From Eledone cirrhosa (Eukaryota), in the NCBI GenBank assembly GCA_964016885.1, contig OZ024760.1, positions 7,192,001 through 7,256,000 of the forward strand: 64,000 nucleotides of DNA, written 5' to 3'. The position numbers and the translations under genes were made by a program. Every line of letters begins with the position of its first letter. The first letter of the stretch is position 1. Under the pieces are notes generated by a model that did not search any database, had not been told where the DNA came from, and was given only the letters and a program-made list of their open reading frames with translations. Positions 5,469 to 54,290 of the stretch are shown here, in pieces.

Positions 5469-5729
5469 TAAAACATGTCTATAGAATCACAAGATAAAAT
5501 ATATACTATTTCCTCTACCAATTAGCATAATTAACTATATAAAAAATCGAATAGCCCAGGCTATAAGAATGAGGCTTCTATGAAGAAATCTCCGACAAAT
5601 AACCGAAACTAGACCTTCGCGTCGGCCGTAGCGGAATATTTATCGAATATTTCGACAGCGTAATCGCCCAGATACAGTCAACTAAACAGAATTAGGTGTA
5701 AAATAAACTAGGAGAAAATAGAATACATT

Positions 5730-5768
<39 letters not shown>

Positions 5769-8700
5769 AAAAGGTAAACAGAAATAACACAAACGGTACA
5801 GTATATGGAAGGAATATATTAGTTTAACGCTTGAGAAAGCAGGAAGGTCTTCATGTTTTGGATGCTAGTCCTTCATCAGAAGAATGAGAAATTAGAAAGA
5901 TTGAGGGTACAGGCGGGGTTGAATCAGAAAAAAATTTTTTTAGAGAAAAATAACAGGTCCATTCATATATATATATATATATATATGTATGTATCTATGT
6001 AAAAGGTAAACAGAAATGACAACACAATCGGTACAGTATATGGAAAGAATATATTAGGTTAACGCTTGAAATAGCAGGAAGAGGGTCTTAACGCTTGAAA
6101 TAGCAGGAAGAGGGTTTTAACGTTTCGGACACCAGTCCTTCATCAGAAGAAAGAATGAGAAATAAGATAGATTGAAGGGACGAGAGGGCTGGAATTGGAA
6201 AAAATGTCTTTAGATAAAAATAACAGGTCCATTCATGTTGACATCTCTTATATATATATATATATATATATATCATCATCATCATCATCATCAACGTTTA
6301 ACGTCCGTGTTCCACGCTTGCATGGGTTTGGACGGGGGTAGTCCCACTTGAGGCAAGAGTGATTGTCTTGCTCGCATAGGACTGTCTGGCAGGTTTTCTA
6401 CAGTTGGATGCCCTTCCTAACACCAACCACATTTACAGTGTGGGTCTGGGAGGTTTTTACCGTGTTGCCTACACGGCCACATTACAGCGTGGACTGTGTG
6501 TTTTTTTGTCGTGACACCTACACGATCTCATTTGTTTCGGCCTGGATGGCGCGGCACCAACATAACTTTACATAGAACGGGGTGGTGTGGATGGGGTGGG
6601 GGTGGCGGCGGGAGGGGTGTATTTTGTTAGAGATGCCTACTGGCAAGGCGGGTCTTCTCTGTTACTGAGTACCGCCAAAGGTCACGGTCCAGTGACATTG
6701 TCTTGGAGAGGTGTAAGTGTGTGAGGTCGGAGTTTATCAGCTCATCCCATGTTTTTCTAGGTCTGCCTATTCCGTGGCTACCGTCTATCTTTATTGCCCT
6801 GCACTTTGTAATACAGCTATCGACTTTCATGCGCATCACGTGTCCATACCAACGCAGCCTTCTCTCGAGTAAACAGCATCTGATCCCTCTTATCTCTAAT
6901 TTTTTCCTTAGTTCGTTTATGCTTTGCCGTTCACGTATATTACTGTTACACATCCAGCGGAGCATGCAAGCTTCGTTCCTCTCTAGTCTGCGTATATCCT
7001 CTGCACACAATGCCCAGGTCTCACTACCATGCAACATTGCTGTTCGTATGCAGGCATCGTACAACCTGCCTTTCATTTTTAGGGAGAACCCTTTAGCAGC
7101 TAATAGTGGTATAAGCTCTCTGAACTTTTTCCAACCAGTTCTGACTCTAGCTACAGTACTTTCAGAGCACCCTCCCCCACTGCTGATTTTATCGCCCAGG
7201 TAACGGAAGCTGTCCACTATTTCTATAAAACCCTCTGCGCAATTGAAAGAGCTAGTATTTTGTGGGCACTTGCTGCTACTTATTGCACCAGAACACCGGC
7301 CACATGTAAAGTCTATGTTCTTAGTTAGCTTACCTGTGATCCCACTACATCTTTTATGCACCCATACTTTGCATTTAGGACATAAGATGGAGTTTCTACC
7401 TACGCCTTTCCTACATACCGAGCACGACCATTTCCCAGAAGGGACCGCCGCCTTGTTTTCTTTCCTACAAACTAGAACTTTGGTCTTAGCCAGGTTAATT
7501 TTAAGTCCTTTTGACTCTAGGCCGTGCTTCCATGTTTGGAATTTCTTCTCTAGCTCGGCCATTGATTCCGCTATGAGTGTCAGGTCGTCTGCGTATAGGA
7601 GTTCCCATGGGCAGCCTGTCTTGAACTCCTCTGTTATAGCCTGAAGGGCAATAATAAATAGTAGGGGGCTGAGAACAGAGCCCTGATGGACGCCAACTTT
7701 TACGCTAAACTCTTCACTATATTCGTTGTTAATTCTAACCTTGCTGACTGTTTCTTTATACATGGCTTGTATAGCCCTCACAAGCCATTCGTCAACGCCT
7801 AGTTTTCTAAGAGCCCACCAGATAATGGAGCGGGGGACTCTGTCGAAGGCTTTCTCCAGGTCGACAAAAGCTAAGTAGAGGGGTTTACCTTTAGCTAGGT
7901 ACTTCTCCTGTAGTTGTCGTACTATGAAAAGAGCGTCTGTGGTGCTTTTGCCTGACACAAACCCGAACTGCATTTCATCTAGATCAATTCTCTCTCTGAT
8001 TAGTTGCGCTATTACTTTTTCCGTGACCTTCATGACCTGGTCGATTAATTTAATGCCTCTATAGTTACTCCTATCTAGGGCGTCTCCTTTACCCTTATAA
8101 CAGTTAACGATGATGCTGCTATGCCAGTCCTTCGGAACAACCCCATTCTGTACGACTTGGTTAACTATGCGGGTGACCATGGTGTGTCCCACCGTGCCAG
8201 ATGCCTTCAGCATCTCAGCAACTATTTCCGAAGGCCCAGCCGCCTTACCAGTCTTCATATCCTTGATTGCCTTACTTATTATACTCCCCTCGACTAACAC
8301 TGCTGGTCCCTCTATCGGGTCGATATGGGGGAGACTGTCTTTCTCCCATTTATTCTCCTCATTTAGAAGCCTTTCATAGTGACACTTCCAAGCTACCTTC
8401 TTATCAGTGTCGGTGATGGCAAGTATGCCATCATCGTTAAGTACACACTTCTCCCCGACAATATCACGGTTTTCCTTGACGCATTGCCTGGCAATCCTGA
8501 ACACCTCACGTTTTTGGTCATCGCGTTGTAGAACATGCTTGAACTTTCTTTCCTCAGCTTCCCTTCTTGCTAAGTACACTTCTCTCCTAGCTTCCCTCCT
8601 GGCCACTTGATAGTCTACTCTACTTCCCCCATCCCGCCATACTTTCCAAGCCTGCTTTTTGGCCTTAATTGACCCCTCCACCTTACTGTTCCACCACCAT

Positions 8701-9673
8701 GTTACTCTCCTCCTGCCTACAGGCCTGCTCCAGCCACAGACTTCGTCTGTCGCCAACAGCAGGTTAGCTTTCAGAAATTTCCACTGTCCCTCTATATTGT
8801 CCGATTCTAGATGCTCTTCCTTACTGTCGAAAGCATCAAGTAATATGCTTTGAAATTTATTTCTGGCTGTGGGGTCTTTTAGTTTCCATATTTTCCTCCT
8901 GAGGATAGTCCTCTTCTGCTGTCGGGTGCGTCTCGTCCTGACTATGAGGTCGCTAATTATCAGTCTATGTTGGGAGGTGCATTCTTCATGGGGGAGGGAT
9001 TTAGTGTTTACAACAGACACTCTGTCACGTCTTCTGGTAAGGATATAATCTACCTGGCTTGTGTGTTCCCCGGATCTATAGGTAATCAGGTGATTGTCAC
9101 GTTTTTTGAAGTTATATATATATATATATATATGATGATGATGATGATGATGGCTTGCACTCTCTGGCACACACATGGCAACTGTAGGCTCTTCTGGGAC
9201 TTTCCATTGCTTTGTTCTGACTGTGTTCTCATGTGTCTTTTAAAACCTTCCATGCTTGCACATTCCTTACACCTTTTCAGATCATAATCTACACGGGGTC
9301 TACTGATGTGATTTTGTTTGTGTCTAATCAAACCAGCTTTGCTCAGGCAGACTCGATCACAGTGCTGGCAAACTGGATGTTGTTCAACAGCAGGCAGTTC
9401 AGAACAGTCTCTTTTCCGTGTTAGGTGTTATATATATATATTATATATTAAAGGAACGATCGACTTTCGTCAAATCGGACCGAGGGAACAATGTTTCCGT
9501 TGGTCTTTCCAATTGCTAATACTATCTATCGGTCGCAACTCCAGGTAGAAGAAGCAACGTGAAATAAAAGTGTCTTGCTCAAGGACATAACGCATCGACT
9601 GGTCCAGGAATCGAACTCACAACCTTACGATTGCAAATCCAATTCTCTAACCACTCAGCCACACGCCTTCACC

Positions 9674-9710
<37 letters not shown>

Positions 9711-12059
9711 GCATACTAATTTTATGTATTACAACATATATAATATGTACCAGCCCACACTATAACGTGGTTGTATAGGTGTCAAGACAAAAAACACCCA
9801 GCCCACACTATAACGTGGTTGTATAGGTGTCAAGACAAAAAACACCCAGCACACACTGTAAATGGGGTTAGTGTTAGGAAGGGCATCCAGCTGTAGAAAC
9901 CAAACCAGTCCTATATGAGCAAGTCATCGTCATTGGATCTAGTTTATCTCACAATGGGACAACTCGTCTAACCCATGCTAGGGTGGAAAATGGATGTTAA
10001 ATGATGATGAGAGTAAGAGAAGAATGAAAAGAAGGAAAATGTCTTCGCATGAGGAAAACGTGTGCATAAGTTAATCAGCCATTTTGGAGGATTGGATTTC
10101 AGAACGAGACATGTATTGAAGAGTTATTAGAGGAAGGGGAGATAAGCATGTATACCTCAACTTACCAAATATTTAACAAGCAAGCAAACATGGTGATCTT
10201 GGATGGATCTACTGTATAGAGATGCACTCTGATCAACCTGTTCAACAACTGAAATAGAGAATTAAGGTTTTACTATTAACATCCTATAATGATTTAGCAG
10301 AAAATATTATAAAAATAGGTTTGTTAATTCATGGTATGATCCCGTAATTCTTGAGGGAGCCGTAGGAGCACCAAATCGACATACAGCGTTTCTCAGGGTA
10401 TTATTAAACCTGGCAGAGCTCATCACCACTGAGTAAAGCTGATTTCTTCTAGTAGAGAGTGGAAGTGAGTGAGAGAGATAAAGGAAGAATTGATCCCAGT
10501 ACTGGACTGATATCTTTACTACTGGACAAATTGTGAGAATTTACAGTAAACTAGAATAAAGACTAATATTTAATGTGATGTAGTTACAGTACTGTTTTGT
10601 ACTTTACAACAATGTCTTGCTAATGTGGTTTCATGAGGCTTTGTTCTCTTCATCGTTGTTTAACGTCCATTTTTCCAGGCTAGCTGTTTGTAGTATCTTT
10701 ACTAGTGGACAGATTATGAAAATTTGCAGTATTTAATGTGATGCAGTCATATTGCTGTTTTGTACTTTCCAAGAATGTTTTGATAATGATGTTTCATGTG
10801 GTTTGTTAAATCAAATATTCATAGTATCTTTACTAGTGAACACTTTGTGAAAATTTGTAGTATTAGAATAAAGGGTTTAATATTAAATGTGATGCAGACA
10901 TAATGCTGTTTTGTATTTTACAAGAATGTCTTGCTAATATGGTTTCATGTGGTTTGTTATTTCAAATGATTTTAGTGATTTTACTAAAGGGAAAGAATGT
11001 TGTGAAAATTTGCAGTAAACCAAAGTACAGACCTTAATATTTAATGTGATGCAATCAGTGTTGTTTTTGTACTTTTCAAGAATGTCTTGCTTATGTAGTT
11101 TGCTAATTCAAATGTTTATAGTATCTTTACTAGTGGTCATATCATTGTTAACATTTTGTAGCATTTGAGTAAAGACTTACAATATTTAATGTGATGCAGT
11201 CATAGTGCTGTTTTGTTTATAGAATTCTTTCTCCCTTTGTCAGGCTGTTTTGCTCTACAAGAATGTCTTGCTAATATGGTTTCTTTTATAGTATTTTAAC
11301 TAGTGGACAAATAGTTATGAATATGTTCATAATTAGAGTAATGACTTTAACCCTTTATATTTACTATTGTATTTTCATGGTAAAGGCTTTACTTCACATA
11401 ATATCGAATCTATGAGATTTTGATATTATTTAATTTCAGAACAATACCCTAAGCGGCCGATTAGAGCCAGTTTGAACAGAAAGAGGTTAGAGAATTCTGG
11501 CCGGATATGGCTGATTTAAATGCTAAATGGTTAAAGTGTCAGTGTTGAGTTAGTGTTTACAAGATTCCATATATGTGTCGTGTGATTTCTTACACAATTT
11601 CTATCATAGCAACACGAAAATGGATGTAAAAAATAAAAAAATTAAAAAAATATTGAAATAGATAAAGAAAAAAATTCTTACTTGTAAAGTGAAGGTAAAA
11701 ACATAGTTTTGCCAAAATATGAGAAAATTCCTCCTCAGGTAATTCAATCTTGGTACTAGTTTTTGCAGAGAGTTGTCCATTACTCAAAAGTGAGGCAAAA
11801 GTTGATCTGGAGAGAAACACATTTATATAGATATATCATCATCATCATCATCGTTTAACATCCGTGTTCCATGCTTGCATGGGTTTGGACGGAGGGTTTT
11901 CCCACTTGAGGCAAGAGTGGTTGTCTTGCTCGCATAGGACTATCTGGCGGGTTTTCTACAGCTGGATGCCCTTCCTAACACCAACCACATTTATATATAT
12001 ACATATATATATACATCATCATTATCATCATTTAACGACTACTTCCCATATGTTTTTAT

Positions 12060-12124
<65 letters not shown>

Positions 12125-12306
12125 CCTTCAAATGAAATTGTTCTAGTCATGTAGAAGCCATTTCTATATTAAATTTTGTTGTATATACTCTACTAATGTA
12201 TTAAGTATGTTACTTACTGCAGTTACCCCTGACTGAACCTGGGACTCACCCACATATATATATATGTGTGTGTGTGTATATATATATTATATACAAACAT
12301 ATATAT

Positions 12307-12337
<31 letters not shown>

Positions 12338-18300: not shown

Positions 18301-18544
18301 GACAAATGAATAACTTCTTTAGAATCAGTTCCTGGAGCAGCTCTGGTTGAAGGTGGTAATGTCACGGAATTGACTGTCTCCAGTTTGGCTTGAGTTCTTG
18401 AATGGGCAGCTGCTGTATCACCAGCAGATAACCAAAACTCCAAATCCTCATGCTGGGGAGTGAGGCAGGGGTCAAAGTAGTGGAGGAGGAGGGGGTAATT
18501 AAAAAAAAAAGAAAATAGTTACTCAGATATATCATCATCATATA

Positions 18545-18600
<56 letters not shown>

Positions 18601-22536: not shown

Positions 22537-23458
22537 CCTGGGAGTGAAAGGCCCCCAGTTGTTGTCACAACACCTTTCTAAGAGAGGGAAACTCTGAAGA
22601 AAAAAAAACCTTCGGCTTCGGAACCATCTGATGGTGTTGACCAGTTCTCCTTTCCGGGTAGTGTTTTCGATGCTCAGAGAGTGGGATTGGTCGAGTGCAA
22701 GGCCTTTCCTCACTTAAGAAACCTTCGAAGCACAGGCATTGCTTGTTCAGATTATGTTACAGGTTTGTGTGGCTGGCCGTAGCTTAAAAGTGCACCATTT
22801 TCTGTAATCTGACAGGTGATTGCAATACTCTTAGAGTTTGCAACCATCATGTGTATATATATATATATATACACACTTACACCTCACCAAGACAATGTCA
22901 CTGGACCGAGACCTTTGGCGGTACTCAGTAATAGAGAAGACCCGCCTTACCTAAATACAAAGTAAAACCTACTACAGTGAGTAGGCATCTCTAACAAAAC
23001 ACACCCCCGTCCCACCACCCCATCCACACCGCCCCTTTCAATGTAAAGTTATGTTGGTGCCACAACATCCAGGCCAAAACAAATGAGATCGTGTAGACAC
23101 AGTCCACGCTGTAATGTGGCCGTGTAGGCAACACGGTAAAAACCTCCCAGCCCCACACTGTAAATGTGGTTGGTGCTAGGAAGGGCATCCAACTGTAGAA
23201 AACCCACCAGACAGTCCTATGCGAGCAAGACAATCACTCTTGCCTCAAGTGGGAAAACCCCCGTCCAAACCCATGCAAGCGTGGAACACGGACGTTAAAC
23301 GTTGATGATGATGATGATATATATATCTGTGTGTATGTATATATTATATATATATGTATGTATATCTGTTATTGCATTATTGTCCCATTAATGCGAGTGA
23401 AATGAGTGTCACATGTGAATAAACAATGATGTTATATTGATACTTTGTTCCTGTAATT

Positions 23459-26500: not shown

Positions 26501-29500
26501 TTCTGGATCTCATGGCAGGATTCATACCCACCATGGGGTCCCTTTTTGGGGCTATGTTTTATGGATGGATGCCCTTTCTGGTGGCAATCCTTTTACTCAC
26601 CCATATTGAACACAGGGATAGTGTACTTATTGTAAACCAGATACACACAGGGATACAGCGTACCTATTGTAAACCAGATACACACAGGGATTCAGTGTAC
26701 CTATTGTAAACCAGATACACACAGGGATACAGTGTACCTATTGTAAACCAGATACACACAGGGATACAATGTACCTATTGTAAACCTGATATATACAGGG
26801 ATACAGTGTACTTATTGTAAACCAGATACACACAGGGATTCAGTGTACCTATTGTAAACCAGATACACACAGGGATACAGTGTACCTATTGTAAACCAGA
26901 TACACACAGGGATACAGTGTACCTATTGTAAACCAGATACACACAGGGATACAGTGTACCTGTTGTAAACCAGATACACACAGGGATACAGTGTACCTAT
27001 TGTAAACCAGATACACACAGGGATACAGTGTACCTATTGTAAACCAGATATACACAGGGATACAGTGTACCTATTGTAATCCAGATACACACAGGGATAC
27101 AGTGTACCTGTTGTAAGCCAGATATATACAGGGATACAGTGTACCTATTGTAAACCAGATACACACAGGGATAGTGTACCTATTGTAAACCAGATACACA
27201 CAGGGATACAGTGTACCTATTGTAAACCAGATACACACAGGGATACAGTGTACCTATTGTAAACCAGATACACACAGGGATACAGTGTACCTATTGTAAA
27301 CCAGATACACACAGGGATACAGTGTACTTATTGTAAACCAGATACACATAGGGATACAGTGTACCTGTTGTAAACCTGATATACACAGGGCTACAGTGTA
27401 CTTATTGTAAACCAGATATACACAGGGATACAGTGTGCCTGTTGTAAGCCAGATATACACAGGGATACAGTGTACCTATTGTAAACCTGAAATACACAGG
27501 GATACAGTGTACCTATTGTAAACCTGAAATATACAGGGATACAGTGTACCTGTTGTAAACCAGATACACACAGGGATATGGTGTGGCTATTCTAAAAACC
27601 ACATACACACATCATAGAAAAGTGGGCTTAAAAACAATGATGATGATAGAAATGATCGAGGTATTCTGTAAATAAAGTAATTCTGTATTAATCAACATTA
27701 ATCAGTTGTACCCAGCATTGCTAATCACTTTGAGAAGCAACAGTGACTGGGATAGCAACATCTACAAATCAGGTGTGTCATGCAAGTCTTACCTGGGACA
27801 TGTAAAGGCACAGATAGATCAATATCTGCTACAGGAATATCTTCAATATTGATTGATTCATATCTTTTACTCTAAAAAAACAAAAAGAAAAAAAAAGTTT
27901 CTCAGTCTTTTAGTTGTTTTGTTTTTATTTTTTAAAGAATACAGTGTACCCCCAACATTCGCAGAATTTTCCTTAGATACCTAACTAATAATTATTCATG
28001 AAAACCACTGCATATTCGTGGAATCATAAATATCTTCCTTGATTTTTTTTAATGGCTTTTTTCATGGCAATATTTATTTTTTACCGCTAAATTAATAACA
28101 ATGTACCATATTTTCCAGTCTATTGGATGCCTCTTCGTATAAGACGCTCCCTCCTCTTTTTTTATTATATTTTATGCAATATTTTGACATCTATAGGCAT
28201 TTTAGGGACCTCGTCCAATATTTGCGGTTTTTCACTTGTCACTGGTCCTCTGGGAACGTTACCCCTGCCAATACCAGGGGACAACTGTATTTTAAAATAT
28301 TTTCAAAATAGCTCCATATTTAAAGAAGTAGTCTAGTTAATACAAAGCATTGTGAGATGTGTAATAAAAGACTGATAAGTTTTTAAAAGCCAGTAGAATG
28401 TGGTAGAAATATATAAAGGGTAGATGATGGCAAATAAAACAAAACAAAGTAATGTTTTACCCAGTATATTTCAACTTAATATTTCAGGGTTACACCACTC
28501 TTTTCAAATGTAGGGCTGAAACAGTTCAAAACAAGTCTACATTTGTCCTTTGTATTTTTCTACTGTGTTGTATCGGCTGTTTGAAAATTATTGGTCTTTT
28601 ATTTAAAGTAGTTGTTACGATTGAAACTCAGGTCAGCTCTGATCAAGACACTCCAGCTGTGACCTTCACACAGATTTTTCTCAAACTGAATGTACGACTA
28701 CATTATCCAATATGCCCTTTTCTTATCAGGCAACATATATATGATTTGAACAATTATTTGGCTGCTATTTCTAGTAAACCCAGTTGTAACCAAAAAGCTG
28801 CTTTAAAAAGTCTCATCCAACCCATGCCAGCACGAAAACATGGACATAAAACATGATGATGATGATGATGGTAGTGGTGCTAGTAATGGGGGAGGTGGTG
28901 TTGGTGATGATGATAATAATGAAGGTAGTGGTTGTGATGATGGTGATTGGGGTGGTGGTGATGATGAAAGTGGTGGTAATGATGAAGGTGGTGGTGGTGA
29001 TGGAAATAATGATGAAGGCAGTGATAGTGGTGATGGTGGTAATGACGGTGATTATTATTATAGCAACCATTAAAAGTCAACAACTTACTTTACTTTTACC
29101 ATCATCTTTTAAATAATGGGGATTATGCATCTGTTCAATCCTCCTTTGTTCACGTCGCTAGATAATAATAATAAATAATAATAATAATGGTGGTTTTTAT
29201 ATAGGCACAAGGCCAGCAATTTTGGGGGAGGGGGGAAAAGTTGATTAAATCGACCCCCAGTGCATGACTGGTACTTTATTTTATCGACCCCCCGTAAGGA
29301 TGAAAGGCAAAGTTAACCTCGGCGGGATTTGAACTCAGATTGTAAAGGGCCGTAACTCTATGCTGCAAAGCATGACGTCCGACCCTCTACCGATACTGCC
29401 AATCCACCACCCTTAGAAGAAGAAGGAGGAGGAGAATATTAATAATAATGGTTTCTTTATTGGCCACAAGGGCTAACACGAAGAAAGACATTACAGGCAG

Positions 29501-32500: not shown

Positions 32501-34245
32501 CAATCCAGTATTGCACTGGTACAATTTTAACTTTTTTTTAAAAATCAACCCCGAAAGGTTGAAAGTAAAAGCTGACCTCAGCAGGATTTGAACTCAGATT
32601 TAGCGACATTCTAACGACTCTGCCAATTCCCCTGACTTAACTTTGTTTAAATTGTTCAAATAAATCAGCAACACCACCACCACCAACACCACCAACAACA
32701 CAACAACCACAAACAACAACACCAACATCACTAACACCAACAACACCAACCACCACCAACACCAACAACAATATATTCTACACATACTTATCAGGAACTG
32801 GTACTTTTCTTTGAGCCTTTAATGCAACAGGGTTCAATTCTCCAGAAAACAAACAAGCTATTTCTTCTGCTAAATGGTTTCCTTTCTCTTGAAGTTTCAT
32901 AACATATTTTACCAATTGTAAAACACAACAAGCCTGCAAGATAAAGAGAGAAAAAGTGTGTGTGTGTGAGAGAGAGAGAATATAAGATTATTTCTAGAAG
33001 ATAAATCATATCTTGAGACACACATCATCTTAAGACGTGTATCATATCAAGACCCATATCATCTTAAGACATGTATCATCTTAAAACCCCTATCATTTAA
33101 GACATATGACATAAGACATGTATCATCTTAAGACCCCTATCATTTAAGACAGGTGATATAAGACATGTATCATCTTAAGACCTGTATAATTTAAGACAGG
33201 TGACATAAGACATGTATCATCTTAAGACCCCTATCATTTAAGACAGGTGATATAAGACATGTATCATCTTAAGACCTGTATAATTTAAGACAGGTGACAT
33301 AAGACATGTATCATCTTAAGACCCCTATCATTTAAGACAGGTGATATAAGACATGTATCATCTTAAGACCTGTATAATTTAAGACAGGTGACATAAGACA
33401 TGTATCATCTTAAGACCCATATAATTTAAGACCTGTATCATCTTAAGACACGTAATATATCAAGACATGTTATATTAAGGCATGTGATATATTAAGACAT
33501 GTATACTCTTACCCTCTCCTGGACTTCAAGATCAGCGCTCTGAATAAACATTGGCAGTTTATCAAGAAGCATCTGTCCAGTTTCTTTCATTGTAACTTCA
33601 TCAGCTTCGTCTTCTGCTTTCTTCAAGATATTTGAATATAATTTCACTAAATTCTGAACATAGACACTCTGGATATGACCTGGTAAGGCAGTAATCTTGG
33701 GACGTAGCATAGCTTCTAACGTAGACTTTGGATCTTTCAGATATCTGAAATAAGGTGAGGAGTTGTTTAAAAAAACGGAAATTATATATACATATATGAG
33801 ATGATGATGATGATGATATATATTAGAAAAAAAACGAGGAAGTTTCGTTTACATGTATATATTTATTGTGTATCGACCTGTTATTTTTTGTCACATCGCC
33901 AGTCTGAAGAGCAGATCAAGTGGAGTCACGTCCATAACTTCTAAGGCTAACCTTGAGCCAATCCTCTTTGAAATGTGCATAACAGGTCGATACTCAAATA
34001 TTATATACATCTAAACAAAACTTCCTTGTTTTTTTTCTAATATATACACTGCCTATGCATAGACTGCTTGCTTAGGTACCACCAGTAATTCACTGAATCA
34101 CGTACACTACATATATGTGTGTGTGTGTGTGTGTGAGCTCACGCACAACACAAAGAAACACATGGGAAAAAAGGGAACAGAAACCAAGGAAGACACAAAC
34201 ACAAGGACAATTACTGCTCATTGGCTGGCTTCTTGGATCATTATG

Positions 34246-35829: not shown

Positions 35830-36892
35830 AGGGAGTGTAAGTTGGAGTTACTATAGGTTCACCCGGGTGTGTTCTGTATGTGTGCATGTTTGAACAATAA
35901 AAACAGAAGCCAGTGTAGGGAGAGAGTTAGCTCATTGTTTTACGATCATTTCAGAGGGTCGATTGATGGAGATCGATGTATCGACCAGCATGGTAGTGGT
36001 TAAGTTACTACCCTTTACCAGTCTCAAAATTCCTGTTCAACCGGCCGTCCTCCTCAGAAACACTAAACTAAATTTAATTTACTAGAAGTATATATATGTA
36101 TATATATATATAGACTCAAGAGATAGGGTATACAGAGATAAGTAGATGGGGGCGTGTGGTGCATCTGAATAGTTCCTGAAACTGAGGGTTGGGGGGATAT
36201 AGGGTGGGTCAAGGAGGGAGATACTAAGATACACTATACATATATTTATAGTATCGCCTCATGGCCTCGTAATACCCTCAGCCCCTCCCCCCCCCATTTC
36301 CAGAGAGACCTGCCTACACACAAATTGTAAATATATGATAAATAAAATCGTTAATTTATACTATGTATAAATAAATATTATATATATATTTTTTATTTTA
36401 CTATATTTATATATAATATGTATCATTTGATATTTAATATACTATTATATCATCCTTACTGCCCCCCAGCTTCTCTGATTTAGTACAATATAAAACAAAA
36501 GTGATATGTGTATATAAGCCCAGACAACTTACCATTTAGTACAATATAACACAAAAGTAATACATATATATAAGCCCAGACAACTTACCATTTAGTACAA
36601 TATAAGACAAAAATGATGTATATATATAAGCCCAGACAACTTACCATTTAGTACAATATAACACAAAAGTAATACATATATATAAGCCCAGACAACTTAC
36701 CATTTAGTACAATATAAGACAAAAATGATGTATATATATAAGCCCAGACAACTTACCATTTAGTACAATATAACACAAAATTAATATATATATATAAGCC
36801 CAGACAACTTACCATTTAGTACAATATAACACAAAAGTAATACATATATATAAGCCCAGACAACTTACCATTTAGTACAATATAAGACAAAA

Positions 36893-37644: not shown

Positions 37645-37675
<31 letters not shown>

Positions 37676-38047
37676 CAAAGGTTTTATTTAAAATTGTTGG
37701 GTTACAACAAGTAAATATTTTATAACTGATATAAAGCACTCGACAAATTTTTGGAGTATATATACGATATTAAACAAATGGAAACTATATTTATAAAACC
37801 ATATTTATTTCATTATACATATTTCAAAGATACCAAGTTAAATTATGGTATGCCTTCATCAGACAAAATACAATATATACCAGTTTTATAAATAAATAAA
37901 TAAATAAATATAAATATTTATTTATAAAACTGGTATATATTGTATTTTGTCTGATGAAGGCATACCATAATTTAACTTGGTATCCTTGAAATATGTATAA
38001 TGAAATAAATATGGTTTTATAAATATAGTTTCCATTTGTTTAATATC

Positions 38048-38141
<94 letters not shown>

Positions 38142-41330: not shown

Positions 41331-41363
<33 letters not shown>

Positions 41364-41902
41364 GATATACATATATATGTATATAATGTGAGAGTATGTG
41401 TGTGTGTGTGTGTATATATGTATGTGGAGCAAGAGACTCCTAGTCTTCATTTAAGACATCTCTCTAGGAGAAGGTCACTCTGATATAAAATCTCCAACTT
41501 CGTTTGCATCCAATGATGTAGACCAGTTTTTTTTGGCAAATGCATTTGATATTCAGAGAATGGGATTGGCCCCGTGCAAAGCCTTTCCTCACTTAAAAAA
41601 AGCTTCAAGCACAGCCATTGTTTGATATGCAACATTGTTTGCAATGCATAACATTGCTGGCCATAGGCAAGTCCCTAGCAGGACTAAAATGCCACGTCTG
41701 TGCTGCCCATGCTTAAGTATCAAGTGATGGCATTACTTGAGATCGAGTTGCAGCCATCATATATGTATGAATGTGAGAGTGTGTGTGCATATGTGTATGC
41801 ATAATTATACATATATATATATATATATGTATGTATGTATGTAATGTGAGAGCATGTGTGTGTATATATATGTGTGTGCATGTATGTGTGTGTGTATATA
41901 TA

Positions 41903-41960
<58 letters not shown>

Positions 41961-44020
41961 CAACACACGTTTTCAGTTAAGAAATCTTACAAAACAAATA
42001 AAAAAATTAAATATATATAGATATATGTATGTGTGTGTGCATCTATGTGTATATATACATGTGTGTGTGTGTGTGTGCATCTATGTGTATATATACATAT
42101 GTGTGTGTGTTGTAAGGTGTATGGTGTAGTGGTTAGATTGTTCAGCTCATGGGCGTGAGGTCAAGAGTTTGATTCCTGGTGGTGGCAGTGTAGTGTCCTT
42201 GAGCAAGACACTTTATTTCATGTTACTCCACACAACTTAGCTGTACCTGCAATCCAAAGAGCCAGCCTTCTCTCTCACACACTATATGATGCTGAATTTC
42301 ACTGAGGATTAAGTTAAGTGGACATGTGTTGGTGGAATGCTCAGCCACTTGCACATGGACCATACAACTGGAACACTCATTGTCAGAACTGATGAAGGAA
42401 GGTCTAACATATATGTGTGATGTGTATATATGAGTATGTGTATATATGAGTATGTGCATGAATGTGTAAATGTATGTGTAAGTTAGTCTGTGTGTGTTTG
42501 TAAGTGTGTATGTGTTTGTAAGTGTATATGTGTTTCTATAAATGAATGTGTGTGTGTATTTTTGTATGTGTTACATTATTTTAATATATAGTGTTTTGTG
42601 ACAGACATACAAAGCCTACATCTGTATTTTGATATATTGCAACCCCTAGTTAATTACTGCTATATACTCAGTGTAATTACTGCTATACTGCTATACTACA
42701 TATAAGCCCTCTGACAAACAGGACCACTTTTTACAATGGTGGGGGTGTGACATGAAGGAGATTTGACTGCTATTTACAGTCTGTAGGGGGCTCCCCTTGC
42801 TGCTTCTTATCCCTTATTATTATTATCATTATTATTATTATTTCTTTAGTGTAAATAATAATTTTCTTGTCAGAGAACTTATGGAAAAGTCGACAGTAGA
42901 CGCAACTTTAGCTTCTGTAAGAAACTGGAGTTGTGTCTCCTGAACGACCAAGTTATACTCAGCCTGAAAGGAGAAGTTTTCTTTCATACTAATCTCACAG
43001 ATAGCCAAAAAAAAAAACCAACATCATACATCAGCCAAAGAAAGAACCCGGTTAAGAAGAGCTTTCACAAACAAACCAGACCTTTCAAGCACCACAGTAA
43101 GAAGATAAATGACACAACATCACTTTCCAATCACATATGGTACAAAGGAGAGCAGACAGTAACTTCTTAGCACTTTGAGATGTGGGGGGCATGCAGCTGT
43201 AGCTCACCTTTATGTTGTTGTTGTTGAACAGTTGATGGAACTTGTGAGCGGCCAGGAAATATAAATATACACATAAACATATATATACATATATACACAC
43301 ACACAACATAGACAGGCACATCTTTACACACAAACACACAGTTGAGTGTATACATCATACACACACACAAACACACAGTTGAGTGTATACATACACACAC
43401 ATATCTTTACACACAAACACTCAGTTGAGTGTATACATACACACACACATCTTTACACACAGTTGAGTGTATACATACATACACACAAATATAAACATGT
43501 GTACATGCAAACGCACATACACACACAACACATTTTTACACATAAACACAAACATACATGCAAACACACACACAAAAACATATGTACACTCACACGACAC
43601 ATTTTTACACACAAGAACAAACATATGCGTACATGCAAACGCATATACACACAGTTGTATGTAGATATATACATATATACATACACACAAATGCACATAT
43701 ACGAGTGCACACACACGGGTTACACTCTAGCCTGGTGAGCCTCCTGGTTGGGACAGACATATATACATATGCATACATACTGGTGAATAGGCTTGAATAT
43801 TTCAATACTACAAAGCATTATTAAATATCTTCAGAAGCACTATAAATGATAATACAATGACCTGAGATTCAGCAAGCCCAAAAGAATAGTTATACTCAAT
43901 ATTTTTCCTCTTTAACTAAATTGAAATAACATAAACATTAGTTGAATAAGATGTATTGAAACATTTGTAAAGCTAATAAATGGTATAAAGAAATCTAGTC
44001 CGTCATCTCAGAGTTTTATA

Positions 44021-44066
<46 letters not shown>

Positions 44067-44862
44067 ACATATGTATACCGCTCTCTCTCTATATATCTAT
44101 CTATCTATCTAAGGCGGGTAAAATTCCCGAGATCCATGGACGAGTTCTCTCCAGCGGTCTCTGTCCCTCATTATCACTGCCATGTCCTGCATCTCCAACA
44201 GACCAGTGTCTGTCCTTAGGGCATCAACATACGTTAACCTTGGTCTTCCTCTTATAGTGTGTCCATGTAGGGGGCTCCCACAGGAGCACTGAGTGCAATG
44301 TCAACTCTGGATGTCGGTGAGCATGTCCAGCCAACCTCAGTCTCCTCTGTGTATATATAATATATATATATATATATATTTATGTATCTATCTATCTATA
44401 TAGAGCGAGAAATTTTTGTTTTTTTGTGTGTCTTTATTGGACCTTTTTCCCGTTTCTCCATTGTGATCCTGTCTCTATTTTGTACTCTCTTGAAGGGCTT
44501 AAGCCTGAAACATTGAACTTTCTCTCCTCTTTCCAATATAAAGCGCGAAACTAATAAGGTCTTTTGTACCTCTGTTGTCTCCTAGAATTATATACATATA
44601 TAGTAATAATAATAAATGTGAAGACTAAATATATATATATATATATTAAACTTAAGCAAAAATCTCATGGGGGGGGGGGGAGAGCTAGATCGGGTAAAAT
44701 CTCCCCAAAATAAGATTTTGGCTTAAGTTTAATATATTTTATTACTTCGCTGAGTAGATAATTTATTAATATATCTTATCCTTTCATTGAGATGTTTACA
44801 CATTAGAAACAGAACTTTATAAAATTTATAAATTAATACATATACATACATACATACATACA

Positions 44863-44898
<36 letters not shown>

Positions 44899-45572
44899 TA
44901 TATATTTGAAAATTCACAAGTCTGATGAACTATTGATTCCAGAGTCAGGCCTGATCACAACTGATTGTATCTTGAGCTGATTGATCACGAAAAGTGCATC
45001 ACATGTGATTAAACATATTGATACTTTGTTCCTGCTCCTGGTATCATGTAACTCAGTATAACCTGCTTCATGGTTGAGTGGTCAGCAACTAAACCAGCTC
45101 GCTCACCAGACCCTGTTCTGGTGAGGGGGGTAAGTGGAACCCCAGCAAGAGCTGTTAAAAGGGGCAGATGAACTCTTCAGTGTCAAAAACCATCCCTCCC
45201 GGCTATGGGTTAAACAGCCTCACCAATCTGCGATTGGCCAAGCATGGTTAGTACAGCTACATCCCTGACATGACCAAAACCAGTGGACGTAAACCAGGGA
45301 GGAGCTCCTCCAATAAGAAGGACAAGATCCTTGATTGGATATATATTATAAAGAGTCAGGACCCGATGACTGAGCAACAGCTAGTTCCGGACTCAACAGC
45401 TGCATCTGGAACTAGCTGTCGAAACGGTAAGAGCTCAGTCGTCGGGTCCCGACTCTTTATAACATAACCATACTCTACTACCCCAAGTATCGAGTACTCT
45501 GTTGAGTAATGGTCTAAACACACACCTCTCTCTATACACAGACACACACACACAGATAAATCTACCAATCAA

Positions 45573-45606
<34 letters not shown>

Positions 45607-47912
45607 TAAATTATATTGTCAAATACAAGTTATATTTGGCAATATAATTTAATGAATAATTTGCTTCACCTGTAATTATTTTAACACATTAGGAATTCAT
45701 ACACAAGGTTGTTTGAAAGAAAAAGTTTAAGGAAATATCATTCATAGCCTTATGTACAGTTTATTATAATAAATTACCATATTTTGAGATGTTTAAACTT
45801 CTTCACATAATTCTTTCCAGTTTTTATATTTGAAAACAAAGTTCTTTATATATATAAAGAATCTTGCTAAACAAATTCAGAAACGAAATATATAAAGAAC
45901 TTTATATATATATATATATATATATAAAAACCCAGATGAAACAAGTATTTTCTAGTCATAGTTTTAAAGGCAACCAGCATATTATGTTCAATAATTTAGA
46001 TGTCTCAATGTTTCAAGAAGATAATAGAAATAGAGGCAGTACTTTGTTTGGCAAATGACTTGATTTCAGACTGAATTGAAACTCTAGTTCAGAATATAAT
46101 ACAGTGCCCACCCCAACCCTATTTCCAGAGAGACCTGCCTACATGCAAATTATAAATAATATATAATAAATAAAATCCTTAATTTATATATAATAAATAA
46201 TATAATAAATACTATGTCATTTAAAAATGTTTAGGTTTAAGTTATTCTAAAAACTGACCGTCACAATTTAATAAATAAACTAACTTTAAAAGTCCTGTAC
46301 CTCATGGAACCACATTAGCAAGCATTATCATCATCATTTAATATCTATTTTCCATGCTGGCATGGGTTAGGCGGGTTGTCACATTATGAGACAAGTCAGG
46401 TTCAGAGACCACGTCTTGCTCATACGGATCTGAATTTAGGCTTGGTTTCTATGGCCAGATGCCCTTCCTAACACCAACCATCTCATTGTGGAGTGGATGT
46501 TTTTTATCATTGCATATATACGTATATATATTATACTTTGGGAAGGTCATGTTGCTAATAGAATATATATATAAACTATAATAAAGTAAGAAGTGCAGGA
46601 CTGCATACAGTTTATAATTTGTTATCCCTTTAGTAAAATAAGTTGGATTACTTTGAATAAATAATGAATGAATATTATATAATTTATCTACTAAATTTCG
46701 TGGCTGTTCATTAAATATATTTTATTACTTATTTAAAGATTCACTTCTTTAAAATTTTCAAATGTCAACACTTCCGGTTAGCGATCATTTAATTTTCTCC
46801 TAATGCAGTTTATATATAATATGTGTCATGGATTATGTTACTGATTACAGAAGAGAGTGTAACAGTCTTCGTTCAATTTGTGGATATTGTCAATTACGGT
46901 TTTATTTGATGTATCATATCTACATGTATATATACTTACGTATAATATCAATATACACACACACTACACATGCTAGCAGAAAACCACCCGAAGCGTGGTT
47001 TTTCTGCTAGTATATATAATAATCAGTCTAGGTATCTCAATTTTCCTACCCACACGAAGTCAAATTTCTCACTGATTATGTGTACACCTCTAATCAGTTG
47101 GGTTTGAATTTTAATAATATGGACTTAACTAGATTATTGAGTGAGTGAGGAAACAACTGAAGCTGTGTCCTTTCTATTCAATAGAAGCTTCATCCCTTAA
47201 TTATATATTTATATAAATAGGTATTCAAAGCTAGTCAAAGAAAATTAGTACAGCCTCAGTTGTTTACTCACTCAATGGTATAAACAGGTTTGTATTATTA
47301 AAAATACAAACACATTACTCAGACTACACACACATGTTAATCAGTAAGAAAAACAACTTTATTTCATCATTTCATTTTACGTCCACTTTTCCCTGCTTAC
47401 AAGGGTGGGACGGGCACTGATTCTGGCTTGATTTCTACAGCTGGATGCCCTTCCTAACACCAACCTCATTTACAGTGAGTGCTGGGTGCTTTTTTGCCGT
47501 GGCACCTCCACGACCACTTTGCAGTGGAATGATAGGGACCCCAGTCCCTATCATCTCATTTCTACAGCTGAGTAAACTAGAGCAATGTGAAATAAAGTGT
47601 CTTGCTCAAGGAAACAACACATCACCCGGTGTGAGAATTGAACTCACAACCTTTCGATTGCAAGGCCAATGCTCTAACCACTAAGCCATGTGCCTCCATA
47701 TATATATATACACAAATGAAAGTACAGGATATTCGAAGCTCGAGCCGCAGCTAAGCCGATGAATGCCTTCAGCAGTGCAGCCAAGCACTCAACAAGGTAT
47801 AGACCTCAGAGTAATAACAGACAGTTTAAAGGGCTTTGCAAATTGAAGATAGTGACCGGTAATTCAGCCGCGGGGTCTGTAGCAACGAAAGAACTGACTT
47901 GCGAGAAAAAAT

Positions 47913-47946
<34 letters not shown>

Positions 47947-50900
47947 GTAGGAGGTGAGTTTTATTGTAGTACAATAAAGCAATGCAGATATCGGATAAGT
48001 AGCACTCAACAGTTTGTAGGACTGGAGTATAAATAATATATAAGATCAAAAGATGGTTAAAAGAGTTCCATGTATTTTATTATGCGCATTTCTTTTCATC
48101 GCACATATTATTAAACCCTTCAATATACAAACCTTAATTTAACATTATTCTTAAATTTTTCTCTTCGTTAATTTCCAAATTCTTTTAATTTATATATTAT
48201 CTTCCAACGGTTTTTTAACCTCTCTCTGTAAAACATATTTTTCTCAGTTATAAAAGCTATCTCTCTCTCTCTCTATCTATCACCCATCTCTCCTCCTATC
48301 TCATCCTTTCTTATTATACTCCCCCCCCTCCATACTCTCATCTCCTCCTCTTTTTCACCCCCCCCCCATATCACACATCAATCTAAAACTACTTTTCATA
48401 TGTTGATTTAAAACTGCACTATTCACAAGTGTTTTTTAACCTTCATATCATGTCTCCCTATTTTATCTGACGAAAACGCAAATGTCATCGCATGATGATA
48501 TTTGTTTTTGAAATGCGCATAATAAAATACATGGAACTCTTTTAACCATCTTTTGATCTTATATATTATATGTATATATATATATACATATATAAATAAA
48601 ATAAAGAATGGTTTTCTGAAGAGAAATGGAAGGGAGCCACAGTTAAATGAGGTACTCAATATCTCAGTAGAGAAAGTACACATTTATTTTATATAGAAAT
48701 GACTTCTACAGGGTCAGAACTGTTTCATTCATTTGAAATCAATATGAATAGATATTCCTGATTACTATATGAAATATATAATCACATAAATGTGCGTGTG
48801 TGTGTGTGTGGTGTATATATGTGTATGAGTGTATATGTATATGTGTGGATATAAGGAAATCATTATATTAGAGGTTTAAAACCAGAGTAACCATATTAAA
48901 TGTACCAAAAATATATCACTACACTGAATTTTCTTATTTCCCTCTTTATAAGATAATTTCTTAAGAATTTCTTTTAAATGTTTAGAAAAGTTTGAAGAAA
49001 TTTGAAATTCTTAGTTATTTTAATATTTTTCTATTTAATTGTTATTTAACTGATAAACGTTGCTAAAGATATCTGCTGAGGAACAAATAAAAATGGTATC
49101 AAACATATACATAGCCGATCTCAGACTTTTATGAAGTGCCGAGGGAACAAAGTTAACATAAAGAGTGGTGTGCTCATGTGTGGATATGCTATAAAATAGG
49201 GTGAAGACTCTTAAAGACGAAGAAAGAAGCTGCCATTAGCCGTGATAGTAAATTTTTTTTCCATCTTTAACCTCTTCAGTGCCGTAGATGAGATAACTCA
49301 TCCTAACATGTATGCATTCCAGTGCCACGGATATGATAACTCGTTCATAACTTCAAAGCTAGATAGGGTTACTAGTTTATTGATGTGGTGTTTGTCAATC
49401 ATTCAGATATGGGTTGTTAATAAATGTATGTTTAAAAAAATAGTCATTTTACGGCAAAAAAAACCCGGCACAGCGACTGTAAAATATACGCAGCAGTCAA
49501 CAGGTTATGGGTCTTCACTCTAATTTATAAGCTATTCTATAGTATCTCCACACATGAGCAAACCGCTCTTTATGTAAATGGTATAGTTAAAACAAGAAAA
49601 GAAAGAGATAATGCAAGAGTAACAAAATTTGTAAATATTTGGTACCTGTATGGAGGCTGAGTGATTAGGGACGCCTGTAGATATAGAAATAAGGACTGTA
49701 AGTAAAAGGAAAGAATTATTATTTTCACATCAAGAATCTGATTCAATGACATCACGCATTTATTTATGTTGTACAGAGATTGGAGAGAAAAATATATTTT
49801 ATTAGAATAATACATTTTGTAAAAAATACAATATATTTTGTGAAAAAACAATATTTTATGGAAAAATAAAAAAATACATTTTATGAAAAATAGCGTATAT
49901 TGTATATAGATAGCATGTAATGTGTATAGATAGCATATATTGTATATAGATAGCATGTAATGTGTATAGATAGAGCATATATTGTGTATAGATAGAGCAT
50001 ATATTGTGTATAGATAGAGCATATATTGTATGGAGATAGCAATATATTGTGTATAGATAGCATGTAATGTGTATAGATAGAGCATATATTGTATGGAGAT
50101 AGCATATACTGTATGGAGATAGCATATACTGTATAGAGATAGCATATATTGTATAGAGATAGCATATATTGTATAGAGATAGCATATATTGTATAGAGAT
50201 AGCATATATTGTGTATAGATAGAGCATATATTGTATGGAGATAGCATATACTGTATGGAGATAGCATATATTGTATAGAGATAGCAATATACTGTGTATA
50301 GATAGCATATATTGTATAGAGATAGCATATATTGTATGGAGATAGCAATATATTGTATAGAGATAGCAATATATTGTGTATAGATAGCATATATTGTATA
50401 GAGATAGCATATATTGTATGGAGATAGCATGTAATGTGTATAGATAGCATATATTGTATGGAGATAGCATATATTGTATAGAGATAGCATATATTGTATA
50501 GAGATAGCAACATATTGTGTATAGATAGCATATATTGTATGGAGATAGCATATATTGTATGGAGATAGCATATATTGTATGGAGATAGCATATATTGTAT
50601 AGAGATAGCAATATATTGTGTATAGATAGCATATATTGTATGGAGATAGCATATATTGTATGGAGATAGCATGTAATGTGTATAGATAGCATATATTGTA
50701 TGGAGATAGCATATATTGTATATAGATAGCATATACTGTGTATAGATAGCATATACTGTATAGAGATAGCATATATTGTGTATAGATAGCATATATTGTA
50801 TGGAGATAGCATATATTGTATAGAGATAGCATATATTGTATGGAGATAGCATATATTGTGTATAGATAGCATATATTGTATGGAGATAGCATATATTGTA

Positions 50901-53571
50901 TGGAGATAGCATATATTGTATGGAGATAGCAATATACTGTGTATAGATAGCATATATTGTATAGAGATAGCATATATTGTATGGAGATAGCAATATATTG
51001 TATGGAGATAGCATATATTGTATAGAGATAGCAATATACTGTGTATAGATAGCATATATTGTATAGAGATAGCATATATTGTGTATAGATAGCATATATT
51101 GTATGGAGATAGCATATATTGTATGGAGATAGCATATATTGTATGGAGATAGCATGTAATGTGTATAGATAGCATATATTGTATGGAGATAGCATATATT
51201 GTATATAGATAGCATATACTGTGTATAGATAGCATATACTGTATAGAGATAGCATATATTGTGTATAGATAGCATATATTGTATGGAGATAGCATATATT
51301 GTATAGAGATAGCATATATTGTATGGAGATAGCATATATTGTGTATAGATAGCATATATTGTATGGAGATAGCATATATTGTATGGAGATAGCATATATT
51401 GTATGGAGATAGCAATATACTGTGTATAGATAGCATATATTGTATAGAGATAGCATATATTGTATGGAGATAGCAATATATTGTATGGAGATAGCATATA
51501 TTGTATAGAGATAGCAATATACTGTGTATAGATAGCATATATTGTATAGAGATAGCATATATTGTGTATAGATAGCATATATTGTATGGAGATAGCATAT
51601 ATTGTATGGAGATAGCATATATTGTATAGAGATAGCATATACTGTGTATAGATAGCATATATTGTATAGAGATAGCATATATTGTATGGAGATAGCAACA
51701 TATTGTATGGAGATAGCAACATATTGTATGGAGATAGCAACATATTGTATGGAGATAGCAACATATTGTATGGAGATAGCAACATATTGTATGGAGATAG
51801 CAACATATTGTATGGAGATAGCAACATATTGTATGGAGATAGCAACATATTGTATGGAGATAGCAACATATTGTATGGAGATAGCAACATATTGTATGTA
51901 CAAGAGTAAAGATTTAGGATTAAGTACATAAAAGTACATTAAGATAGCACTTATTTTTTTTCTAATTTGATAATTATATTTTTCTCCATATAATTGTGTA
52001 TGGTAATTAAAAATCGACATTTAGATAATTATTTTTTCTCCAAATAATTGTATAATTTTTCCTCTAAATCATCATCATCACCATTTAACGTCCATTTTTC
52101 CATGCTTGTACAGATCAGACAGGTCGTCCGTGTCGAGAGATAAGTCTGACCAGGATTGGCCACGCCATACCTTGCTCCAACGGGACTGTAAATTTGACCG
52201 GGGATTTTACCGCTGGATGCCCTTCCTAACACCAACCACATTTACAGTGTAATTGTATATTTTTTTATCTCTAAATATTTGTCTATGGTTATTAAAGATG
52301 AAAGTAGTATTGAGGTGTCGTGGTTAATAGACTTACCTGCTATCACTGTATTAATGCACTCATAAAGTAAGGACATTGCCGATGTGCTGAAAAACAAAAC
52401 AAAACAAATTCATATATTTATTCCTCAGAGTAGCTGATGGTAACTTATTTTTCCATCTTTAACCCTTTAGCATTTATATTACTCTATATTTACTATTATA
52501 TTTTCACAGTCAAGGTTTTACCTCACATAACATCGAATCTATGAGATTTTGATGTTAATTATTTTGAGAACAATTCTTTAATGTAGGTACGAGTAGTCAG
52601 TTTGAACAGAAAAAGGTGAGAGTTCTGCCCAGATACGACCGGTTTAAATGCTAAAAGGTTAAGAGTCTTCACCCTATTTTATAGCATCTCCACACTTCTC
52701 TATATATTATATATATATAGGATCTCGATGTAAATCAGAGACGATCACTGTCAAAAAGAGTACTCAATACTTAGTAGATTATAGGTTTGTATATTAAGTT
52801 ATTTTACAGCATCTCCACACATGAGCACACCACTCTTTATATTATATATATGTAGTATCCCGATGTAAATTGGGAGATGACTACTTACAAAAAGGGTACT
52901 CAATACTTAGTAGATTATACGTTTGTATATTTTATTATAGAAATAACTTCTACAGGAAGCAAAAATAAATTGAAATAAAACCATCTCAATTTCGTTGTTC
53001 TGTAAAAGCTCAATGGAAATTAGATGTGAAAAATTGTTATACCAGAGGATAATCATACAACAATGTTACAGAAACAACATTGATTATATCTTGTAAAAAT
53101 GAGAAAACACATTGCTAGAACAGCTGATAAAACATTTAAATGCTGTCAAAGACAGCGATGGCCAAAAATGCCTAAGAGAACAGAGTCCAGTGGTCAACAG
53201 AGAGACAATCCATCTTGTAGGAAAGTAGAAAATAATGAGAATATAAAATTATTACTTACATTACTAATTATAAATGCATGATAAAAAGAGTGGTGTGCTC
53301 ATGCATGGAGATGCTATAAAATAGGATAATGACCCTTAATCCTTTAGCATTTCCATTGCTCTATATGTACTATTACATTTTCAGGGTAAAGGCTTTACCT
53401 CACACAATTATCCCACATAATATTGAATCTATGAAATTTTGATATTTATTTTGGGAACAATACTGTAACATCAGTATGAGTGGTCGGTTAAAGCCAGTTT
53501 GAACAGAAAGAGCTGAGAGAATTTTGGCCAGACATGACCAGTTTAAATGCTAAAAGGTTAAAAATGGTCGC

Positions 53572-53602
<31 letters not shown>

Positions 53603-54290
53603 TCAGACAACAGGGTTTGTAGAGTTTTGTCTACCAAATCCACTCACAAGGCATTGAAAATATGTTAAAATGTCATACCATCATCATAATATTTTTCCAA
53701 GGAGATATCTTACCTGTGAATTAAGTTTGTGAGTGGTTCAATCAGTTTTTTTCCAAGTCGAGGTTCAAGTGGAGTGAGAGCACCAAACTGAACGGAGATA
53801 AATAATAAATAAATATATATATATGTATATATATTAACAAGTAATAAGTATGGACAAGGTGTCAAATTTTCATTAAGTTTATTCAGGTGTGACGTGTTTC
53901 ATGATTAATCAGCTCAAGGTTCAATCTCTCTCGATCAGGCCAGACTCTGGAACCAAAAGCTCATCAGATTTCTGTTTGCTTAATGGCGGAATATATATAT
54001 ATATATATATCATCATCATCATCTTCGTTTACCGTCCATCTTCCACGCTAGCATGGGTTAGACGGGAGTTGTCCCACTTGAGGCAAGGTTGGTCGGGTGA
54101 CCGTGTCTCGCTCATATAGGACTATTTGGCAGGTTTTCTACGGCTGGATGCCCTTTCTAACACCAACCACATTTACAGTGTGGAACTGGGAACTTTTTAC
54201 CGTGTTACCTACACGGCCACATTACAGCGTGGACTGTGTGTTTTTTTGTCGTGACACCTACACGATCCGTGACACCTATATATATAAATA

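Follow-up and report, generated by a model that had tools for sequence, protein, structure and literature searches.

We analyzed a 64,000-nucleotide stretch of the Eledone cirrhosa genome (contig OZ024760.1, forward-strand positions 7,192,001 to 7,256,000; hereafter the window), which holds the gene for the AP-3 complex subunit delta, AP3D1 (5295 to 63297, minus strand). The gene was recognized from 31 exon matches to octopus AP3D1 protein by tblastn (67 to 100% identity), and a 49-residue exon matches AP-3 delta proteins and the Pfam family Adaptin_N. The original prediction listed about ten minimal hammerhead ribozymes of the type carried by Penelope-like elements (PLEs) in this region; because the exon matches span the minus strand from 63297 to 5295, all listed sites lie in AP3D1 introns. 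Our analysis indicates that the motifs very probably sit on short, 5′-truncated 3′ ends, or pseudo-long terminal repeats (pLTRs), of at least nine Penelope-like families beside TA repeats, where target-primed reverse transcription that broke off early probably placed them. We predict that the hammerheads act as dimers in the RNA of the parent element, not in the AP3D1 transcript.

Hammerhead motifs in the AP3D1 introns

We defined a type I hammerhead by the core CUGANGA, GAAA, and UH together with three stems. A strict scan of the window returned four matches, against 0.21 expected from 100 local dinucleotide shuffles. A relaxed scan, which allowed an extra base after A9, a spacer of 11 to 120 nt, and a stem III that was either palindromic or paired, returned six matches against 0.08 by chance, with a maximum of one in 100 shuffles. 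The listed sequences were all found in their places, at a density far above that of shuffled sequence, and the list itself stood in part. Counting 11 sites and one mirror motif, six of 12 motifs pass the relaxed scan: 33904(+), 36057(-), 37951(+) and its mirror 37862(-), 44922(+), and 48467(+). Two more keep an intact core and fail because their stems are damaged (6146(-) and 53967(-)), two have broken cores (5879(-), with AAAA in place of GAAA, and 44488(+), with 3 nt deleted relative to its family), and one, 45370(+), is the 3′ half of a hammerhead. The CTGAGCA taken for a 5′ core at 45370 belongs instead to the 3′ end of the element itself, present there as an inverted copy.

The remaining motif, 5572(+), is not a hammerhead. 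The sequence CTATGAAG occurs there in 15 of 15 family loci, and the element lies on the minus strand; the truncation point falls just before the family hammerhead, so the real hammerhead of this site is absent from the window. Most of the other listed motifs are hammerhead-type RNA, predicted from sequence to be self-cutting. At the level of whole families, the core was found as defined in A, B, C, D, E, F, H, and I, and mostly not in G. In an Rfam scan of the window at E ≤ 5, the matches listed (150 of 167) included no hammerhead family and comprised microsatellite-driven miRNA matches and two tRNA-like ones.

The cores lie 16 to 289 nt from the nearest (TA)5 tract, 10 of 11 of them within 150 nt, compared with 28% of random positions. 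The predicted (TA)n association thus holds as proximity; the further claim that most motifs lie inside such tracts applied to none of the 11. Strand use among the real motifs is nearly equal (five minus, six plus). Long hairpins around 33904, 37951, and 45370 are formed by inverted 5′ copies and are not ribozyme stems.

Each motif could be placed in a bounded insertion. A family C copy (5478 to 5733, minus strand; 659-nt unit) lies between two TA tracts, with the 5572-5617(+) motif antisense inside it, and carries no hammerhead because it starts 6 nt past the family's cleavage site. Next to it are two minus-strand copies of family B, a putatively Neptune-type pLTR end: one at 5766 to 5966 with the broken-core hammerhead at 5849-5885, and one at 5997 to 6249 whose hammerhead (6112-6152) has a short stem II, an intact core, and a mismatched stem I. 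Family D, likely Hydra-type, occupies 33817 to 34113 (plus strand) with an inverted 5′ copy (33817-33883), a hammerhead from 33904 with a 59-nt stem II, the 3′ end, and a tail. Family E, likewise likely Hydra-type, lies at 35887 to 36229 on the minus strand (hammerhead 35936-36063, 98-nt stem II). The family F insertion (37678 to 38054), which we call Hydra-type on its motifs, is two-armed, with hammerheads at 37951(+) and 37862(-), a 30-nt stem II, a 149-bp inverted repeat, and a tail on the left arm.

Four further insertions lie on the plus strand. Family G, likely Neptune-type (44416 to 44594), holds the hammerhead remnant at 44488 with its 3-nt core deletion. The first copy of family A (44904 to 45030) has a hammerhead from 44922 with a 60-nt stem II and a decayed stem III palindrome, without a coding link. 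Family H, likely Hydra-type (45339 to 45517), consists of an inverted 5′ copy, the 3′ half-hammerhead (GAAA, 5-bp stem III, and GUC site), and a tail. Family I, a young family called Hydra-type by its motifs (47941 to 48564), comprises an inverted tail (47941-48092), a 3′ untranslated region (UTR), and an intact hammerhead at 48459-48530, with a 36-nt stem II, a perfect 8-nt stem III palindrome, and an 8-bp stem I. A second family A copy lies on the minus strand (53870 to 53974); it retains an intact core and has decayed in stems I and III. Family A has left one more remnant at 23397-23452(+), a 3′ end alone without a hammerhead.

Families in the genome and their coding sequence

In the genome searches, the best 40 candidates were scored per search and 13 to 30 loci were examined per family. 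Every searched site except 37951 has dispersed relatives, with 998 to 2499 first-look candidates. Identity to these relatives is about 80% for family A (44922 and 53885), 86% for B (5849 and 6112), 98% for C (5478-5733), 83% for D (33904), 85% each for E (36057) and G (44488), and 91 to 95% for H (45370, searched with the tail), while in family I (48467) all of the 40 best matches show 100% identity to the window sequence across 157 nt. The search with the 37951 region (family F) gave no candidates, AT-rich words being skipped in such a search; 32 distinct copies were recovered from the flanks of other loci. The original prediction of Penelope-type type I hammerheads with palindromic stem III from several families was correct, nine being found. 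Its statement that their stem II sequences are unrelated was not: 5849 and 6112 belong to one family and 44922 and 53885 to another, and the stem II of 33904 (family D) is visibly related to the latter, family A, with interior blocks common to both hammerheads by eye. N7 is the sole core position at which all four bases occur in family D.

Copies are built alike. Their 3′ ends are fixed at microsatellites and may carry a tail, and their 5′ ends are ragged and often come with an inverted 5′ copy. The 3′ end lies within 25 nt of a microsatellite in 24/25 loci of family B, 23/25 of E, 21/25 of I, 20/25 of D, 15/15 of C, 11/15 of G, 17/30 of A, and 8/20 of H (17/20 within 110 nt, tail included). 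This is the Penelope-like copy anatomy described in PMC8557442. Metazoan PLE hammerheads (Cervera and de la Pena 2014, PMC4209133) are alike in their palindromic stem III, the extra base after A9, the many families per genome, the predominance of single motifs from truncated copies, and the occurrence of opposite-strand pairs, a pattern that families B and G fit directly. They differ in a helix II of 6 to 8 bp.

At least eight further hammerhead families were seen at other loci, with 41 to 115 nt of stem II and each with its own stem III palindrome (L318, L320, L324, L330, L332, L337, L340, L341, L345, L363, and L364); the one at L345 is a third relative of families A and D. Another hammerhead family stands in tandem at 420-nt spacing (L321:6394-7234 and L328:7397-7817). 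Family G has spread with a non-standard core (1606 first-look candidates): GACA in 20 of 40 copies (L221-L235 and L434-L458), GAAA in three, another sequence in 11, and six unparsed, with a weak stem I.

Longer copies of seven of the nine families enter, or sit downstream of, Penelope-type reverse transcriptase (RT)/endonuclease coding sequence, a link that the original prediction had named as a check. Of 11 longer family I loci, nine have an RT/endonuclease frame on the strand of the hammerhead, 1.0 to 1.9 kb upstream of it. The frame has the motifs RRLRW, DKT, CNCPVKNKC (CxCx5C), and CxxC...CxH, and at one locus (L318) the tail leads into its beginning. Family F has the same arrangement at two loci (L322 and L328). 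A C-terminal GIY-YIG-type endonuclease with the CxCx5C linker was read from frames of I (L311), F (L322), and E (L088), and the RT N terminus of I and F has DKT plus RRLRW or RRIRW, the K of RWK being lost. By eye, the family I frame has no CCHH motif and carries CxxC and CxH around a conserved E and N. Family D (25 loci) has a putative Hydra-type endonuclease upstream at L385, an inverted RT plus endonuclease at L401, and an interrupted arrangement at L387. Family B has an endonuclease with a C-x4-C-x2-C linker upstream at L059 and a shared end at L069. Frames near family E at L082 and near family C at L262 and L263 belong to neighboring insertions of other families.

We call families I and F Hydra-type because their frame motifs are the features given for the Hydra clade in PMC8557442, which includes Hydra-1_Obim: a C-terminal endonuclease, the CxCx5C linker, and the DKT and RW motifs. 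In the published clade, as here, a type I hammerhead stands close to the 3′ end, insertions target (TA)n, and pLTRs, tails, and inverted 5′ copies occur. The clade differs in size, since its elements are generally under 3 kb in all and the 3′ UTRs here alone reach 1.0 to 1.9 kb, and in its hammerheads (File S2), which have a stem II of 3 to 7 bp and loops of 3 to 10 nt, compared with 30 to 102 nt between the core halves here; stem III here is an 8-nt palindrome. Families B and G resemble the Neptune clade of the same paper in the CX2-5CxxC linker before the GIY-YIG domain and in microsatellite targeting, and differ from it in that family G mostly carries GACA instead of GAAA. Membership in the Naiads found no support, the endonuclease being at the 3′ end in every linked frame (family A is unlinked). 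Four short motifs from A, D, E, and I were absent from the supplement of PMC8557442, where line breaks could hide a match. In the window itself, a decayed fragment of a probable Hydra-type endonuclease was seen at 42890-43170(+) (tblastn E = 0.003).

Abundance and the long stem II

As a background sample we scanned forty 10-kb stretches at evenly spaced round coordinates, 26 of them on the four largest contigs and hence not exactly length-weighted. They held 28 motifs against 0.6 by chance (10 shuffles); one region held five, and one motif (L346) is probably a chance match. The background density is about 70 per Mb, compared with 94 per Mb in the window (28 per 400 kb versus 6 per 64 kb), and because the window lies within the genome background, AP3D1 is not special. 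A (TA)4 tract lies within 200 nt downstream of the cleavage site in 19 of the 28, compared with 21% of random positions. Extrapolation to the 3.0-Gb genome gives about 200,000 motifs, with a Poisson range of about 140,000 to 300,000 that widens given clustering. The larger counts in PMC4209133 are about 4,000 and 9,000 per genome, though the search patterns differ and the figures are not strictly comparable.

Most of these hammerheads are not "minimal," as they had been described: the core halves stand 30 to 115 nt apart in 19 of the 28 background motifs. Short-loop search patterns (spacer 7 to 17 nt, PMC8557442) would miss these 19. Long spacers had previously been seen in passing, as PMC8557442 marks two PLE-X motifs with loops of about 30 to 35 nt as deviating and gives eight Naiads with half cores 35 to 50 nt apart; a reading of our long-armed families as such Naiads is unsupported. 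A title-level, mostly open-access search of the literature on hammerheads in cephalopods or in Penelope-like elements gave no title on long-armed cephalopod hammerheads. Hammerheads in Penelope-like elements and (TA)n targeting are already published; what departs from the published sets is the length of stem II and the sheer number of motifs.

Stem covariation had been proposed as a check, and its outcome differed among families: it was seen in stem II of family F and was not recovered in D and A. In a family F alignment of 30 distinct rows, which includes the window copy and omits two of the 32 copies recovered, six of nine stem II pairs change on both sides and the core is nearly invariant. 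Compensatory cells numbered 35, compared with 12.0 ± 3.3 in shuffles (0/500 as high) and 2 to 7 in slid controls, counts that are uncorrected for relatedness. The older families D and A show much variation at CG dinucleotides by eye. In family D, GGAGU can pair with ACUCC inside stem II (alignment A2, columns 35-39 and 50-54), which may be an alternative fold or a pseudoknot; no compensatory change was seen for this pairing.

Copies of family H, searched with GAAA and the downstream sequence, end 0 to 21 nt upstream of GAAA, inside stem II, in 29 of 30 cases (L191-L220; window position 45405); three of the 30 loci are near-identical duplicates, and full family H hammerheads exist. A general block to reverse transcription in the long stem II is rejected by families D and E, where 17 of 30 copies each reach the 5′ core. 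The simplest reading of these ends is a block specific to family H. A broader proposal, which we consider conceivable and rather doubtful, is that octopod genomes carry some 200,000 hammerheads, two thirds of them long-armed and missed by short-loop patterns, in which stem II would be a selected, family-specific protein-binding arm that sorts RNAs among coexisting Penelope families and retrozyme parasites. The bound arm of family H would then block reverse transcription sharply, and the 29 of 30 ends would be a genomic ribonucleoprotein footprint.

Origin of the motifs and consequences for AP3D1

Family membership, 3′ ends at microsatellites, the optional tail, the ragged or inverted 5′ ends, and the coding sequence upstream in longer copies are direct observations, and the copies are short because they are 5′-truncated. 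For the steps that would produce them we draw on published work. The GIY-YIG endonuclease of the element would nick (TA)n, a target reported for the Hydra clade in PMC8557442, and the RT would start inside the RNA, 40 to 270 nt downstream of the cleavage site. It would copy back through an uncut or rejoined ribozyme, mostly stopping within a few hundred bases and leaving a hammerhead-bearing end. In PMC11167929, reverse transcription begins at two internal sites of the RNA, which accounts for the tail, and uncut RNA is the main substrate; in the one element reconstituted there, the ribozyme is dispensable for insertion and cleavage occurs only with the element's protein. Once inserted in introns, the stubs would decay.

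The hammerheads themselves would act earlier, in the element's RNA. The 8-nt stem III segments form no hairpin alone by computation, and two copies pair at -10 to -11 kcal/mol in the perfect palindromes of families I and C and at -2 to -6 kcal/mol in family F and decayed copies. Because the palindrome pairs between copies and not alone, cleavage likely needs two tandem units. Two such units, perhaps with the element's protein, would cut tandem transcripts into unit-length, possibly circular RNA. PMC4209133 places hammerheads in pLTRs, traces single motifs to truncated copies, describes pairs on opposite strands, and sets out a dimer model, and in its assays dimers cleaved weakly. The long stem II would be a hairpin that has been retained, most likely as an arm on which a protein docks, although this function is a guess. 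With its young, near-identical families I and C and its many long-stem-II variants of independent origin, the genome offers material for assays of dimer cleavage, dependence on protein, and circle formation.

Several results weigh against this account. The coding link of family E comes from one locus (L088/L325), and same-strand coding matches were found in 3 of 25 loci of family H and 2 of 25 of G, the latter Neptune-type by tblastn only. The family B endonuclease at L059 matches PF01541 at E = 0.015, below the cut-off, and Pfam gave no RT or endonuclease family on the Hydra-type pieces; both clade assignments rest on motifs and tblastn. No linked frame was found for family A in 63 loci, upstream walking included, and no uninterrupted full-length frame was seen, the longest pieces being 307 to 606 amino acids. 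On the RNA side, the stem III duplex of family F reaches -2.2 kcal/mol, and two of five covariation measures in that family (the number of both-side pairs and the pair types) are not above shuffles. RNAalifold on families D and A gave hairpins other than the hammerhead, in which 0 and 2 pairs, respectively, varied on both sides, and single-sequence folding was better than shuffles for one of nine motifs (48459-48530, z = -2.67; the others -1.4 to +0.3).

The original prediction took the insertions for short, non-coding elements in their own right, either retrozymes or pLTR-only elements; each family would then have a small RNA of its own as template. Family C does fit. Its sense strand is minus, and its real hammerhead has a 59-nt stem II and a ACCATGGT palindrome. 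In 15 of 30 loci the marker of its 3′ end is found again about 659 nt upstream, so that upstream of the hammerhead stands the family's own 3′ end. At L262, two hammerheads lie 656 nt apart, and the unit has no coding frame. We read family C as a non-coding, circularly permuted insertion of more than one unit, which is what a non-LTR retrozyme mobilized by Penelope enzymes should leave. Non-LTR retrozymes (PMC7229834; Li et al. 2026, 10.64898/2026.07.22.740005) likewise have a non-coding unit that bears a single type I hammerhead, insertions longer than one unit, and Penelope-type ends; they differ in unit size (330 and 350 bp in axolotl, PMC7229834, compared with 659 nt and a 59-nt stem II here) and in forming long arrays, whereas family C mostly has 1 to 1.4 units per insertion at the loci seen. 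Its 5′ ends stop before the upstream cleavage site in 29 of 30 loci (P ~ 0.07 against an exponential model), and 3 of 15 lie within 7 nt of the downstream site, the window copy included. A pile-up at the cleavage site is suggestive only, as some of the loci counted represent the two arms of a single insertion.

For the set as a whole, self-standing elements are improbable. The absence of a linked frame in family A and the rarity of long copies (26 versus 1046 candidates in A, 89 versus 2051 in D, and 186 versus 2332 in H) favor them, but I, F, B, and D run into coding sequence at two or more loci each, and upstream sequence of A, D, E, and H does not loop back to its own tail at the loci examined. 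The idea thus survives in family C, where the motif originally noticed was spurious, and gives way in the seven families tied to RT/endonuclease coding sequence.

It is very improbable that copies in sense orientation cut the AP3D1 pre-mRNA and alter expression of the gene. Five motifs do lie on the transcribed strand, and two of them, 36057 and 37862, have intact cores. However, one of the five is dead, two are stem-damaged, 37862 is buried with its mirror in a 149-bp hairpin (-208.9 kcal/mol), and the last has no same-family partner in the window; intron cleavage is unlikely on these grounds. Single minimal motifs did not cleave in PMC4209133, and the nearly equal use of strands and the background density likewise argue against such cleavage; for AP3D1 the motifs have little importance. 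Chance matching in AT-rich repeat DNA, which does account for 5572 and probably for L346, is refuted for the set as a whole by the counts over shuffled sequence in the window (6 versus 0.08) and the background (28 versus 0.6), by cores kept across unrelated families, and by the compensatory changes.

The AP3D1 introns also hold other repeats. An 870-residue LINE-type reverse transcriptase frame with a PHD finger (6627-9239, minus strand; Pfam RVT_1, E = 2e-32) lies in the last coding intron on the strand of the gene and has close relatives at many other loci. The two tRNA-like Rfam matches, at 47631-47688(-) (37.4 bits) and 56983-57040(-) (28.1 bits), are probably the heads of tRNA-derived repeats. 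Long minisatellites occupy 49890-51897, 59747-62029, and 26610-27611, with units of 20, 31/39, and 37 nt, respectively.

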